Part shown: positions 4,485 through 56,024 of the stretch, one piece after another
Layout: every line of letters starts with the position of its first letter
Numbering within the stretch: position 1 is the first letter of the stretch
Virus record (IMG/VR): IMGVR_UViG_3300013767_000202
Coordinates: 1 to 56,024 of that record
Source: a virus
Lineage: Duplodnaviria > Caudoviricetes
Reading direction: 5' to 3' (one strand)
DNA length: 56,024 nt
Program-made: the position numbers and the translations under genes
Notes under the pieces: generated by a model
Database searches by the model: none
Told to the model about the DNA's origin: nothing
The model's input: the letters and a program-made list of their open reading frames with translations, nothing else

Positions 4485-5080
4485 GCTGCGTGCTCCTTCT
4501 GGTAGAAGTCCCACGCGGCTTTGTCGCCCTGGGCCACGTACCAGGTCAGGGTTCCGTCTCCATCGTGATCACTTACCGATCCTCCGTACTGCGAGCCAGG
4601 GAACTGGAACTTGGCCGACATAGAAACCCGTGGCCACCCGATGCTCCACTCGGTAAAGGTCAGATCAGGACGCTCTGCCAGTACCTTTGCCTTGAAGGCC
4701 TCGCCCTTGGCGTTCGCGTCTGAGATCTCCTTGTCCCGCGCATCTTTGCAGCCCTGATCGCAGTAAGCGTGCCGGCCGTCGTAGACGATCTGGAGCGGGT
4801 TACCTTCGTCGTCTTCCTCGTCATCGTAGAGCTGGTTCTCGCAGTTGTTGCAGTACAGCCACCAACCCTGCTCGTGGTAGGCCTTGGCCGGGATGAAGCT
4901 CTGACCTGCGAACTGATCAGCCCACGGCGCGCGCCGGCAGAAATCCACCTCTTCGAAGGTCAGGTTCAACTCGTTGCCACCTTCGCGGCGCGCTGTAGCA
5001 CTGTTGGTGGCGAAGGTAATGACGTGCTCACCTTCGGAGCCTTCACCGACGTGATAGGCCTTCATCTTTTCTGTGGGCAT
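4481..5080 (-). CDS. Hypothetical phage protein (CxxC motifs)
   Basis: ORF with WWLYCNNC and YCDQGC; start MPTEK chosen. Confidence 0.65.
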   Translation of the reverse strand: MPTEKMKAYHVGEGSEGEHVITFATNSATARREGGNELNLTFEEVDFCRRAPWADQFAGQSFIPAKAYHEQGWWLYCNNCENQLYDDEEDDEGNPLQIVYDGRHAYCDQGCKDARDKEISDANAKGEAFKAKVLAERPDLTFTEWSIGWPRVSMSAKFQFPGSQYGGSVSDHDGDGTLTWYVAQGDKAAWDFYQKEHAA

Positions 5081-5186
5081 GGGGCGTCCTATCCGGGGCA
5101 TGCCCGGGTGACTGATGAACGAAGAGGTGTTGAGGTTCAATCTGTAGGCTAGGATCAGCTCAAACTGACATCATCCGTATCTTTAG

Positions 5187-53777: not shown

Positions 53778-53835
53778 CCCCCAATCGAATTTCGATACCC
53801 GCCATGTGCGGGTTTTTTTTGCCCGGAGAAAAGCA

Positions 53836-54345
53836 ATGGCAAGACTTTCCGAAGCCCGCGCTGGCAGCCGCAATGCGCTCGCCTTCCTTGACATGTTGGC
53901 CTGGTCAGAGGGCACCAGCACTTCGCCGGCCACTGCCATGGATGGATACGACGTGATCGTCACTGGCATCGACAAGAAACCAGAGGTGTTCAAAGACTTC
54001 ACGGATCACCCCTTTGCCAAGGGCCGGGCGTCCAAGGTGATCAACAGCAGGGGGCTGACTTCGAACGCGTCTGGCCGTTACCAGCAGATGTTGCGGGACT
54101 GGCCGCACTACCGCGCCCAGCTCCAACTGCCGGACTTCAGTCCAATCAGCCAGGATCTGCTGGCCCTGCAGCATATTCGTGAGTGCCGAACTCTGCCCGA
54201 TGTTCATGCCGGCCGGATCGAGACCGCCATTAACAAGTGCCGTAATATCTGGGCCAGCCTGCCGGGGGCAGGGTACGGCCAGCGTGAGCACCGACTCGAT
54301 GACCTGATCAAGCAGTACCGGTTGGCGGGCGGGGTGCTGTCGTGA
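53836..54345 (+). CDS. Endolysin (lambda R-like lytic transglycosylase, GH104)
   Basis: AFLDMLAWSEGT, ASGRYQ, DFSP.SQD, WASLPGAGYGQ. Confidence 0.92.
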   Translation: MARLSEARAGSRNALAFLDMLAWSEGTSTSPATAMDGYDVIVTGIDKKPEVFKDFTDHPFAKGRASKVINSRGLTSNASGRYQQMLRDWPHYRAQLQLPDFSPISQDLLALQHIRECRTLPDVHAGRIETAINKCRNIWASLPGAGYGQREHRLDDLIKQYRLAGGVLS

Positions 54346-54851
54346 GTTCGCTTGCTGGGAAGGCTATCGGTGCACTTCTGCTGATCCTGCTGGCGTCCGG
54401 CGCAACATGGAAGGTCCAGGACTGGCGCTACGGCCAGCAACTGGCAGAGCAGGCAAGGGCTCAGGGCGAGACGCTGAATGAACTGACCCTGGCTGCGGCA
54501 ACCCAGCAGCGCACCGAACAGGAAAAACGCCTTGCGCTCGAGCAGCGCCTGGCCGCCGCCGATAGAACCCATCACCAGGAGCTGAGCAATGCTCAAACCC
54601 ATCAAGCTCGCCTGCGCGACCGCCTTGCTACTGCTGACTTGCGGCTGTCAGTCCTCCTCGACGCCAAGGACGGCGTTGCCGGCTGCACAGTGCCTGCCGC
54701 CGCCACCGCCGGCGGCCTGGTTCATGGAGCCCCGCGCGCCCGACTTGACCCAGCGCATGCTCAACGAGTTATCGGAATCACCGGCGACGGCGACCAAGGA
54801 CTGATCGCACTGGCAGCATGCCAGGCGTATGTGCGAGAGATCGCTCGTTAA
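54342..54851 (+). CDS. i-spanin (Rz)
   Basis: N-terminal TM, coiled coil, LRLSV, GD.GLIAL.ACQAY. Confidence 0.85.
   Translation: MSSLAGKAIGALLLILLASGATWKVQDWRYGQQLAEQARAQGETLNELTLAAATQQRTEQEKRLALEQRLAAADRTHHQELSNAQTHQARLRDRLATADLRLSVLLDAKDGVAGCTVPAAATAGGLVHGAPRARLDPAHAQRVIGITGDGDQGLIALAACQAYVREIAR
54589..54804 (+). CDS. o-spanin (Rz1), embedded
   Basis: Lipobox LTCGC, Pro-rich PPPPPAAWFME, nested in Rz in another frame. Confidence 0.8.
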   Translation: MLKPIKLACATALLLLTCGCQSSSTPRTALPAAQCLPPPPPAAWFMEPRAPDLTQRMLNELSESPATATKD

Positions 54852-55128
54852 TCAGGATTGCGGCATCCCCTTCAGCCGCGCACAATTCGGAACATGTCAC
54901 CGACTGTCTGCCAGATCTCGCGGGGATTGTTTCGTTGCATATTATGCATGGAGAGCCGGCGCACCATTCGCACATCAGGCGGCCGCGGTAGGCTGGCTTA
55001 CTGATCGTGCGCGGATAGAGACCTTCGCGCGAGCAGCTGCACCTGCATACCAGCCGGCTTGATTCTGGGCGGTCCTCAATAACGGTCAGACTTCCGAACC
55101 GGAGACCTGTTCGATCAAATCTCTGCAT
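54778..55128 (-). CDS. Cys-rich putative DNA-binding protein (possibly truncated)
   Basis: DRTGLRFGSLTVI...CRCSC and CxxC motifs; 3' end overlaps Rz antisense. Confidence 0.45.
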   Translation of the reverse strand: MQRFDRTGLRFGSLTVIEDRPESSRLVCRCSCSREGLYPRTISKPAYRGRLMCEWCAGSPCIICNETIPARSGRQSVTCSELCAAEGDAAILINERSLAHTPGMLPVRSVLGRRRR

Positions 55129-55294
55129 GAAGAATTGCCCATGCAATGGCCTTCTTCTTGCTGCCGCCATGCACCTCAAGCAGGCGCTTCCAGGCCTCTG
55201 CAAGTTCTGGCTCTGTCTGTGGGTTGATCAGGGCCTGAATTTGAATCTGCGCAGCGCGGTAGCGGGCGGCAGCGTCCTTTTGTGCTTTGCTCAT
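55115..55294 (-). CDS. Small 59-aa putative regulator (candidate Aca), not in ORF track
   Basis: Hand translation MSKAQKDAAARYRAAQIQIQALINPQTEPELAEAWKRLLEVHGGSKKKAIAWAILHAEI; ATGA-coupled to the acr-like gene. Confidence 0.55.
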   Translation of the reverse strand: MSKAQKDAAARYRAAQIQIQALINPQTEPELAEAWKRLLEVHGGSKKKAIAWAILHAEI

Positions 55295-55725
55295 GCTTTC
55301 ACCAGCTCGCCTTCTCGGCCGAGCATGTCGATCATATAAGCAGTGCCTTGTTCATCGCTCACTGCCACGCCTCGATAGCCAAGGATTTTTGCGGCTCGAG
55401 CAGTATAGACCTGCGCATCCCATAGTTCGTCGCTGTCGCAGCTATCGAGTTGCTGGCGATCGCTGATAATTTCTTCGGCTGTGCCGGTATCGACATCGAA
55501 TCGCGCGCAGAACTTGGCAACTAGGTCGTCCAGTTTTTCGGCGTCCTCGTGGTAGAACAGATGGCCGGCAGCGATGATCGCGTTATCGTCAATCTCAGTG
55601 CGATAGACAACATGCTCGCCGGCAGTCATCACGTAAACGTTGGAAGAGAAGAAAAGGAACTCACCGAAGCGGCCGTGCTTGTCGATGCTGGTGATTTCTT
55701 CGGGGCTGGTGTGAAAGAGTTCCAT
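55291..55725 (-). CDS. acrIF11: AcrIF11-family anti-CRISPR-like ADP-ribosyltransferase
   Basis: MELFHTSPEEI...G.FG..LF and W..Q....A..LGY.GV...DEQGTAY match the recalled AcrIF11 pattern (MELFHGSYEEI...LGYTSVEMEDEHGT). Confidence 0.7.
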   Translation of the reverse strand: MELFHTSPEEITSIDKHGRFGEFLFFSSNVYVMTAGEHVVYRTEIDDNAIIAAGHLFYHEDAEKLDDLVAKFCARFDVDTGTAEEIISDRQQLDSCDSDELWDAQVYTARAAKILGYRGVAVSDEQGTAYMIDMLGREGELVKA

Positions 55726-55749
55726 GACGTTCTCCTTGGGTGTGGATGC

Positions 55750-55778
55750 AGCATATCTATATCATATGATATATGCAA
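55750..55778 (-). promoter_or_regulatory. Promoter of acr operon with palindromic operator
   Basis: TTGCAT-N17-TATGCT; perfect 16-bp palindrome TATATCATATGATATA (55758-55773) in the spacer. Confidence 0.7.
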
Positions 55779-56024
55779 GGAAATGCACTACCGTTGGTCG
55801 TGCTATTTCTGAGAGGGAATTATGTTCGGTCGGCAGAACGCCGGGGGGAGGGAGGCCGCAGCATGCGTTATCGGCATAACACCTATGGGGGTGGTGATGG
55901 CATGGGGCGCACAGAATTCAAGCTAGAGCTAAAAGTTTTAGGACGCGTCCGAAAATCTGAGATAGGGGCAGCGCTGGAGGCGGCAATAAGCGAGGACCGT
56001 CAGAAACGACAAAGCCCTGAATAA

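Follow-up and report, generated by a model that had tools for sequence, protein, structure and literature searches.

Known Aca repressors and a candidate acrIF11-aca operon

Autorepression of operons that combine an anti-CRISPR (acr) gene with an anti-CRISPR-associated (aca) gene, acting through an inverted repeat in the promoter, is established (PMC9410906). Aca1-12 are helix-turn-helix (HTH) proteins, and two HTH Acas, Aca4 (67 residues, HTH_23/KORA) and Aca7, are described with AcrIF11-type operons (PMC9410906). Aca13 lacks a conserved HTH, and its paper contains neither "RHH" (ribbon-helix-helix) nor "ribbon". Here we analyse the virus record IMGVR_UViG_3300013767_000202, a stretch of 56,024 nucleotides (nt) referred to as the window. 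At its right end we describe a locus which, on balance, is best explained as an acrIF11-aca operon of a Pseudomonas prophage. The second gene of this operon encodes a protein of 59 residues, which we favour, though with some reserve, as an Aca autorepressor of the RHH type; its family is rare and unnamed and differs from the HTH Acas.

The closest described regulator is Aca14, a dimeric RHH repressor of 66 residues from Pasteurella multocida, reported in a preprint of July 2026 (10.64898/2026.07.27.740549). According to this preprint, Aca14 represses its own operon via an AT-rich inverted repeat in the promoter, and the repeat overlaps the -10 element of its own operon and of a neighbouring one. 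It is found mainly with AcrIF23, AcrIF6, AcrVA3 and csx20, with AcrIF11 named zero times in the main text, and acr-rhh operons are given as being as common as acr-aca12 operons (10.64898/2026.07.27.740549). Because of Aca14, the concept of an RHH-type Aca is not new. A literature search found no paper that joins AcrIF11 with RHH or ribbon-helix-helix.

The 59-residue protein resembles Aca14 in being small (59 against 66 residues), in the aca position of its gene and in a homodimer predicted to be of the RHH type, to which a helical extension is added; in both cases an AT-rich inverted repeat lies inside the core promoter. However, the RHH domain of Aca14 was found by database search, while the family of the 59-residue protein matches no Pfam RHH model. 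Further, the Aca14 repeat overlaps the -10 element and recurs at neighbouring operons, whereas the repeat described here fills the spacer and occurs once. The missing Pfam RHH signal and the tiny reach of the family profile speak indirectly for a family separate from Aca14. Aca4 and Aca7 are similar in operon position, size class and an inverted repeat within the core promoter. They differ in that the 59-residue protein shows no HTH or KORA signal in Pfam and has a predicted beta-ribbon instead of a recognition helix.

The window is a complete 56-kb provirus record with an integrase at its left end. The operon is located on the minus strand, just past the lysis genes, at the right end of the window. 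Its first gene (55291..55725, minus strand) encodes a protein of 144 residues from the AcrIF11 family of ADP-ribosyltransferases, recognised by an NCBIfam hidden Markov model (HMM) and by a match to PDB sequences. The second gene (55115..55294, minus strand) is in the aca position and encodes the 59-residue candidate autorepressor. The two open reading frames (ORFs) share positions 55291-55294, which read ATGA on the minus strand. An initial annotation, made from the letters of the window and the translations of its ORFs, had proposed this ATGA coupling as well as an established acr-aca architecture. The overlap bears out the first, and the second is strengthened by the comparison below, in which the small gene occupies the aca position in 8/8 loci behind a conserved palindromic operator.

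We suggest that the operon could work as follows. On entry into the cell, or in a lysogen, a sigma-70-type promoter (TTGCAT, 17 nt, TATGCT) would drive a messenger RNA with a short leader. By homology to AcrIF11_Pae2, the product of the first gene would modify Cas8f/Csy1 within the assembled type I-F Csy complex, using nicotinamide adenine dinucleotide (NAD), and the binding of target DNA would thereby be blocked. The second gene would be translated by coupling through the ATGA overlap. In its dimer, each chain would contain a helix (residues 3-15), a strand (about 16-23, QIQIQALI), helix A (29-41), a G-G-S turn and helix B (46-55), and the two-stranded ribbon would recognise the AT-rich palindrome that lies between the -35 and -10 elements. 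The bound dimer could then exclude RNA polymerase, so that the operon is switched off once enough protein has accumulated, which is the established logic of Acas. The fold and the dimer of this scheme come from structure models, and DNA binding and repression are suggested by gene position and conservation.

The AcrIF11-family enzyme and its target

Judged by its sequence, the 144-residue protein is a member of the AcrIF11 family and should have the ADP-ribosyltransferase fold. It matches the NCBIfam equivalog model NF052490.1 over positions 1-142 of 142 with 155.1 bits (cut-off 50, E-value 2.1e-45). In the PDB sequences it matches 8DWQ (E-value 1.7e-44, residues 1-143) and, more distantly, 6KYF (AcrF11, E-value 5e-4). 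The initial annotation had pointed to a likeness to AcrIF11 at both ends of the protein and had named an HMM comparison as a check; the NF052490 and 8DWQ matches leave this assignment well founded. Pfam has no model for the protein, and its match in PHROGs is an unnamed family (phrog_11282, E-value 9e-20).

8DWQ is the structure of AcrIF11_Pae2, in which D146 and E147 shift upon titration with NAD; the acidic residues of the NAD site are D146/E147 in Pae2 and D115 in Pae1 (10.1101/2024.08.26.609590). In the alignment to 8DWQ, D124 and E125 of the 144-residue protein correspond to D146 and E147. Together with H5, both are invariant in six homologues from related loci. The protein is alike to AcrIF11_Pae2 (8DWQ) and AcrIF11_Pae1 (6KYF) in the N-terminal motif MELFHTSP, in the D-E pair within SDEQGT, in the full-length sequence match and in being encoded by a prophage. 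However, the central helical region diverges from 8DWQ and is 6-8 residues shorter.

By analogy with AcrIF11_Pae2, the protein would be an active enzyme with Csy1/Cas8f as target. For AcrIF11_Pae2, the only detectable modification in cell lysate that depended on AcrIF11 was on Csy1 (10.1101/2024.08.26.609590). Csy1 is found in 0/2 host genomes that carry the operon, and it is above the cut-off in only 11/301 sampled genomes of the host genus, so the hosts of these prophages usually lack a type I-F target. It could be speculated that the enzyme is a re-aimed AcrIF11 relative, which ADP-ribosylates another defence or host protein where type I-F is absent, with the logic of the operon unchanged. 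A poorly conserved helical region has been hypothesised to set the target specificity of AcrIF11 (10.1101/2024.08.26.609590). The same region, at about residues 60-105, varies most among the homologues collected here, as would fit such a change. However, the protein has a strong full-length match to AcrIF11_Pae2 and reaches three times the cut-off of an equivalog model, and type I-F does occur in the host genus. Anti-CRISPR genes are also often carried in hosts without the cognate system. As type I-F is present in the gene pool but uncommon, a different target, such as the non-Cas one raised in the initial annotation, is possible but not required, and we regard a re-aimed enzyme as unlikely.

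A palindromic operator is conserved in the promoter

The acr gene starts with an ATG at 55725. The Shine-Dalgarno sequence AAGGAG (55732..55737) ends 6 nt before it and is invariant in 8/8 loci. Further upstream on the same strand are a putative -10 hexamer, TATGCT (55750..55755), and, 17 nt before it, a putative -35 hexamer, TTGCAT (55773..55778), of which TTG-AT is invariant in 8/8 loci. Between them lies the putative operator, the perfect 16-bp palindrome TATATCATATGATATA (55758..55773, with a 14-bp core at 55759-55772), which takes in the final base of the -35 hexamer and 15/17 bases of the spacer. Within the 56-kb window the 14-bp core has a single match, even when up to two mismatches are allowed, and it was matched in 0/100 shuffles. 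A second copy was found neither in the window nor in the related loci, giving one copy per operon locus.

The eight loci compared here are the window and seven related loci, which were taken from two Pseudomonas genomes, three viral contigs and two metagenome contigs. In the alignment of their promoters the 14-bp core is identical in 7/8 loci and its 10-bp centre, ATCATATGAT, in 8/8. The exception is L013, where the operator is a variant with changed flanks and the -35 hexamer is TTGAAT, compared with TTGCAT in the other 7/8. At the -10 position a TAnnnT hexamer is present in six loci, and L012 (GATAAT) and L013 (CATAAT) contain one only with a shift of one base. The 40 nt upstream of the -35 hexamer are not conserved, and the synonymous sites of the operon genes are heavily diverged, while the centre of the operator is kept in every locus.

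The initial annotation had described a near-consensus promoter whose spacer is a perfect 16-bp palindrome. The palindrome is indeed perfect. The first part is overstated, as by our own count the -35 hexamer matches the consensus at 3/6 positions and the -10 hexamer at 4/6, i.e. 7/12 together. A sigma-70 scan of 54800-56024 with a threshold of 9/12 called 0 sites. Both results tell against a promoter at this place; what supports it is conservation across loci, not the match to a consensus. On the operon strand, neither a terminator nor a hairpin was found after the 59-residue gene.

In an exact 20-mer scan, the 20-nt string of the -35 hexamer and operator was also seen in two viral contigs of 33% GC, at L007:1472-1491 and L011:10012-10031. 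There are no related genes nearby, so these contigs were rejected as relatives of the operon and the strings attributed to chance in AT-rich DNA.

A rare but genuine small gene linked to acrIF11

The 59-residue protein has no match in Pfam (E-value up to 1), NCBIfam or PDB sequences, and its best PHROG match has an E-value of 0.17. The earlier statement that it is not a recognised Aca thus agrees with the searches, in which no Aca-type HTH family and no Pfam or NCBIfam model was matched. Nevertheless, the ORF is a real gene. Over the 28 pairs of the eight loci (45 codons), the differences at codon positions 1/2/3 are 305/223/779, and this excess at third positions shows that the gene is translated and under purifying selection.

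The family is small. A word-indexed search of 5.8 billion proteins gave 15 candidates, among which 14 homologue clusters have an E-value of at most 0.01. They are 62-83% identical to the protein of the window, and the named ones are annotated as "hypothetical protein" from Pseudomonas. A HMMER search with the family profile against 1.84 billion representatives found 17 at an E-value of at most 1e-3, three of them at most 1e-10. The remote homologues P0017/20/27 and P0022/26/28 have no loci in viral contigs; their clusters are from metagenome sources without names.

An AcrIF11 homologue is located upstream of the small gene in 7/7 related loci, i.e. in 8/8 including the window. The two genes overlap by 4 nt in 6/7 of the related loci. 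In the remaining one, L004, a gene has been inserted between them (L004:1331-1984), which overlaps the small gene by ATGA. It encodes an HTH protein of 217 residues that belongs to phrog_323, "transcriptional regulator, D5-like" (E-value 1e-14). In L002 (Pseudomonas putida GM4FR, 4621-5111), the acr gene is split into two ORFs of 51 and 112 residues, apparently by a frameshift, with an intact small gene downstream. The operon is followed by an integrase in L002, L003 and L006, and itself follows lysis genes in the window. From these differing prophage backgrounds it follows that the acr gene, the small gene and the operator move as one cassette.

The strict tie to AcrIF11 homologues in 8/8 loci does not speak for an autorepressor only. 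Taken by itself, such linkage leaves room for a role as a partner specific to the enzyme.

The gene after acrIF11 is interchangeable

When viral contigs were searched with the AcrIF11 alignment, 23 loci came up at 47-84% identity. In each of them, the gene that follows acr was read; ten were scanned against Pfam, and the other, near-identical copies were classed by eye. The family of the 59-residue protein occupies this slot in 3/23 loci (the same contigs as L004-L006), and a distant relative is present in one more (L056; hhalign P-value 7.5e-5 over 50 columns). HTH_3-like proteins of 67-70 residues are found in 5/23 loci, an HTH_31 protein of 61 residues in 3/23 and an HTH_3 protein of 73 residues in 1/23. 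Two other single loci contain a KORA-type protein with the Aca4 signature (L046; 27.5 bits, cut-off 26.7) and an Aca2_YdiL protein (77.9 bits). A 71-residue protein without a family follows in 3/23 (L049-L051:2968-3183), and 5/23 have no coupled small ORF after the acr gene. Several of the promoters linked to HTH proteins also have an inverted repeat in the spacer. The pattern suggests a regulator slot that is filled by interchangeable small DNA-binding proteins with matching repeats, as expected of Acas.

These loci bear on the idea that the two genes form a pair similar to a toxin and its antitoxin. In that case the ADP-ribosyltransferase would harm its host, and the small RHH protein would be an antitoxin that regulates its own synthesis, as do RelB or ParD. 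The strict linkage in 8/8 loci fits such a pair, RHH antitoxins acting as repressors of their own promoters are well known (RelB), and the fold class of the enzyme includes toxins, with a described similarity to diphtheria toxin (10.1101/2024.08.26.609590). However, within the same AcrIF11 clade the slot contains unrelated small HTH regulators in 11/23 viral loci and no coupled gene in 5/23, so the enzyme does not need the 59-residue partner. The exchange of regulators across one enzyme clade tells against a partner that is obligate, as an antitoxin would be. In addition, the 59-residue protein ends right after helix B and has no toxin-binding tail, the gene order here places the enzyme first, and the modification detected for AcrIF11_Pae2 in cell lysate was confined to Csy1 (10.1101/2024.08.26.609590). 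A toxin-antitoxin relationship is therefore very unlikely in our view.

The relative in L056 (2964-3140), on a viral contig of 51% GC, also follows an AcrIF11 homologue. Its strand reads KRVRVAL compared with QIQIQAL in the 59-residue protein, and its promoter spacer contains a different, imperfect palindrome, TATCGTGTACGCGATA, at the same position. This one instance hints at co-variation between protein and operator.

The 71-residue protein of L049-L051 was rejected as a member of the family (hhalign P-value 0.46). By eye it looks like a strand-helix-helix protein, and it may be another candidate for a non-HTH Aca.

The predicted fold of the 59-residue protein

The initial annotation had described the protein as basic and helical and had guessed at an RHH-like fold. 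The first point holds, with a net charge of about +3 from the translation and a mostly helical model. The AlphaFold2 monomer, built on an alignment of 14 sequences, has a predicted local distance difference test (pLDDT) score of 81.8 and helices at residues 3-15, 29-41 and 46-55.

A homodimer model lends support to the guess of an RHH fold, as do profile links that are weak but in register. The homodimer model, for which we supplied our own alignment, has a score of 0.47 compared with 0.00 for the best control. The runs agree in at least 94% of the contacts, and the pLDDT of the partner is at least 77. Among solved proteins, the mark set for this tool is reached by 20/30 same-chain pairs and by 1/23 single chains, a calibration that holds only roughly here because of that alignment. 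The contacts with the lowest error are 17-23, 18-22, 19-21, 20-20 and 53-53, together with those between residues 31/34/35 and 54/55. This list fits a predicted antiparallel two-stranded ribbon with helix B packed on helix B', as in RHH dimers. At the profile level, the remote homologue P0018 (E-value 9e-7 to the family profile) matches Pfam RHH_1 with an E-value of 6e-4 and 20.1 bits, slightly below the cut-off of 20.5. An hhalign comparison between the extended family and 13 RHH_1 domains from Pseudomonas genomes gives a P-value of 4e-4, and in it helix A, the G-x-S turn and helix B line up in register.

Several results weigh against this fold. Residues 11-20 of the monomer are weak (pLDDT 59), and residues 19-22 are modelled as a helix, with no strand. 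The dimer score expresses how confident the model is in itself and is not a measurement. The hhalign probability against RHH_1 is only 35%, and 0/14 family members match the HTH, KORA or RHH models of Pfam even at E-values up to 10. The family profile finds the PDB sequences at chance level, with a cullin as the best match (E-value 0.7). A Foldseek search with the 59-residue monomer gave best E-values of 4.0 (PDB) and 2.8 (BFVD); this blank is uninformative, as the strands of an RHH protein form only in the dimer. Finally, a look-alike search of the ESM Atlas gave a lead only, at rank 20, where RHH_1 is found on 13% of the cluster. Taking the models and the profile links together, we still think it quite likely that the 59-residue protein has the RHH fold.

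The predicted structure is similar to the RHH_1 repressors CopG, Arc and MetJ in the order strand-helix-turn-helix, the G-x-S turn, a dimer with an antiparallel ribbon and a palindromic operator that overlaps the promoter. CopG reportedly blocks the access of RNA polymerase. The 59-residue protein differs from these repressors in being below the detection of the Pfam RHH models, in an extra N-terminal helix and in belonging to a tiny, phage-borne sequence family.

If the protein were no regulator at all, it could be a second inhibitor, or an accessory protein or chaperone of AcrIF11, and the palindrome would be bound by a phage repressor or a host protein. The failure to match any recognised DNA-binding family, the blank fold searches and the single operator copy per locus would agree with this, and the tie between protein and DNA is indirect. 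However, the operator travels with the small gene across prophage backgrounds, next to lysis genes in the window and to an integrase in L002, L003 and L006. In L056 the change in the strand is accompanied by a different palindrome at the same spacer position, the other occupants of the slot are DNA-binding proteins, and the modelled dimer contacts and the profile links point to an RHH protein. A non-regulatory role hence appears quite improbable, and an RHH-type autorepressor is the reading that we retain.

Aca genes are the main handle for the discovery of anti-CRISPRs by gene neighbourhood, and tools that search with HTH models would not pick up this locus. If true, a second RHH-type Aca with a distinct sequence would bear out that acr operons regularly include regulators other than HTH proteins, and would provide a compact repressor-operator pair (59 residues, 14-16 bp) for the control of a potent enzymatic Acr. 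The advance would be one more regulator family for the well-known acr-aca design, as both the design and the fold class have precedents. The practical reach is limited: members of the family are rare, and AcrIF11 homologues are the only genes to which they have been tied so far.

A third ORF, long forms and the neighbouring lysis genes

A third ORF on the minus strand, at 54778..55128, had been overlooked in the initial annotation. It is listed from an upstream TTG, encodes 116 residues when started from the ATG at 55128, and overlaps the 3' end of the 59-residue gene by 14 nt. It is probably co-transcribed with the acr operon. Its first 80 residues are 50% identical (E-value 8e-25) to the N-terminus of a cysteine-rich protein of 216 residues, which is encoded downstream of the AcrIF11 homologue in L054. 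The third ORF looks truncated, since the similarity is lost after the motif TCSELC and the frame runs into the 3' end of the Rz gene. The cysteine-rich family (CxxC...KTCSxxC) also follows the acrIF11 loci in L043, L046 and L052. Neither the third ORF nor its cysteine-rich relatives have a family in Pfam, and they may represent a further anti-defence or regulatory gene.

The small protein also exists in long forms of 121-149 residues (L002, L003, L006, P0015 and P0016). The genes in the first three loci encode 121-128 residues and are located at L002:5108-5473, L003:6001-6375 and L006:3975-4361. In the models, the long forms add a C-terminal domain of about 60 residues with a predicted beta-beta-alpha-alpha-beta order (pLDDT 82-87). 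This domain has no family in Pfam or PHROG, Foldseek gave no match below an E-value of 0.4, and the word-based search found only the domain itself. The long forms could be fusions of a regulator and an effector.

These additional proteins can be combined into a broader proposal. In it, the small proteins would be a new RHH Aca family unrelated in sequence to Aca14, the long forms would be bifunctional fusions of regulator and inhibitor, and the cysteine-rich protein would be the product of a counter-defence gene. We consider this combination doubtful. If it were true, the C-terminal domain of the long forms would be a new anti-defence effector, and the operons would be small anti-defence islands and not single-purpose acr units.

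Far downstream of the integrase, the window contains tail genes, an endolysin gene and the Rz/Rz1 spanin genes, which end at 54851. The endolysin gene (53806-54345) directly precedes the Rz-like spanin gene (54342-54851, plus strand), in which an Rz1-like gene is embedded in another frame (54589-54804). This stretch is an ordinary lysis cassette that is convergent with the acr operon.

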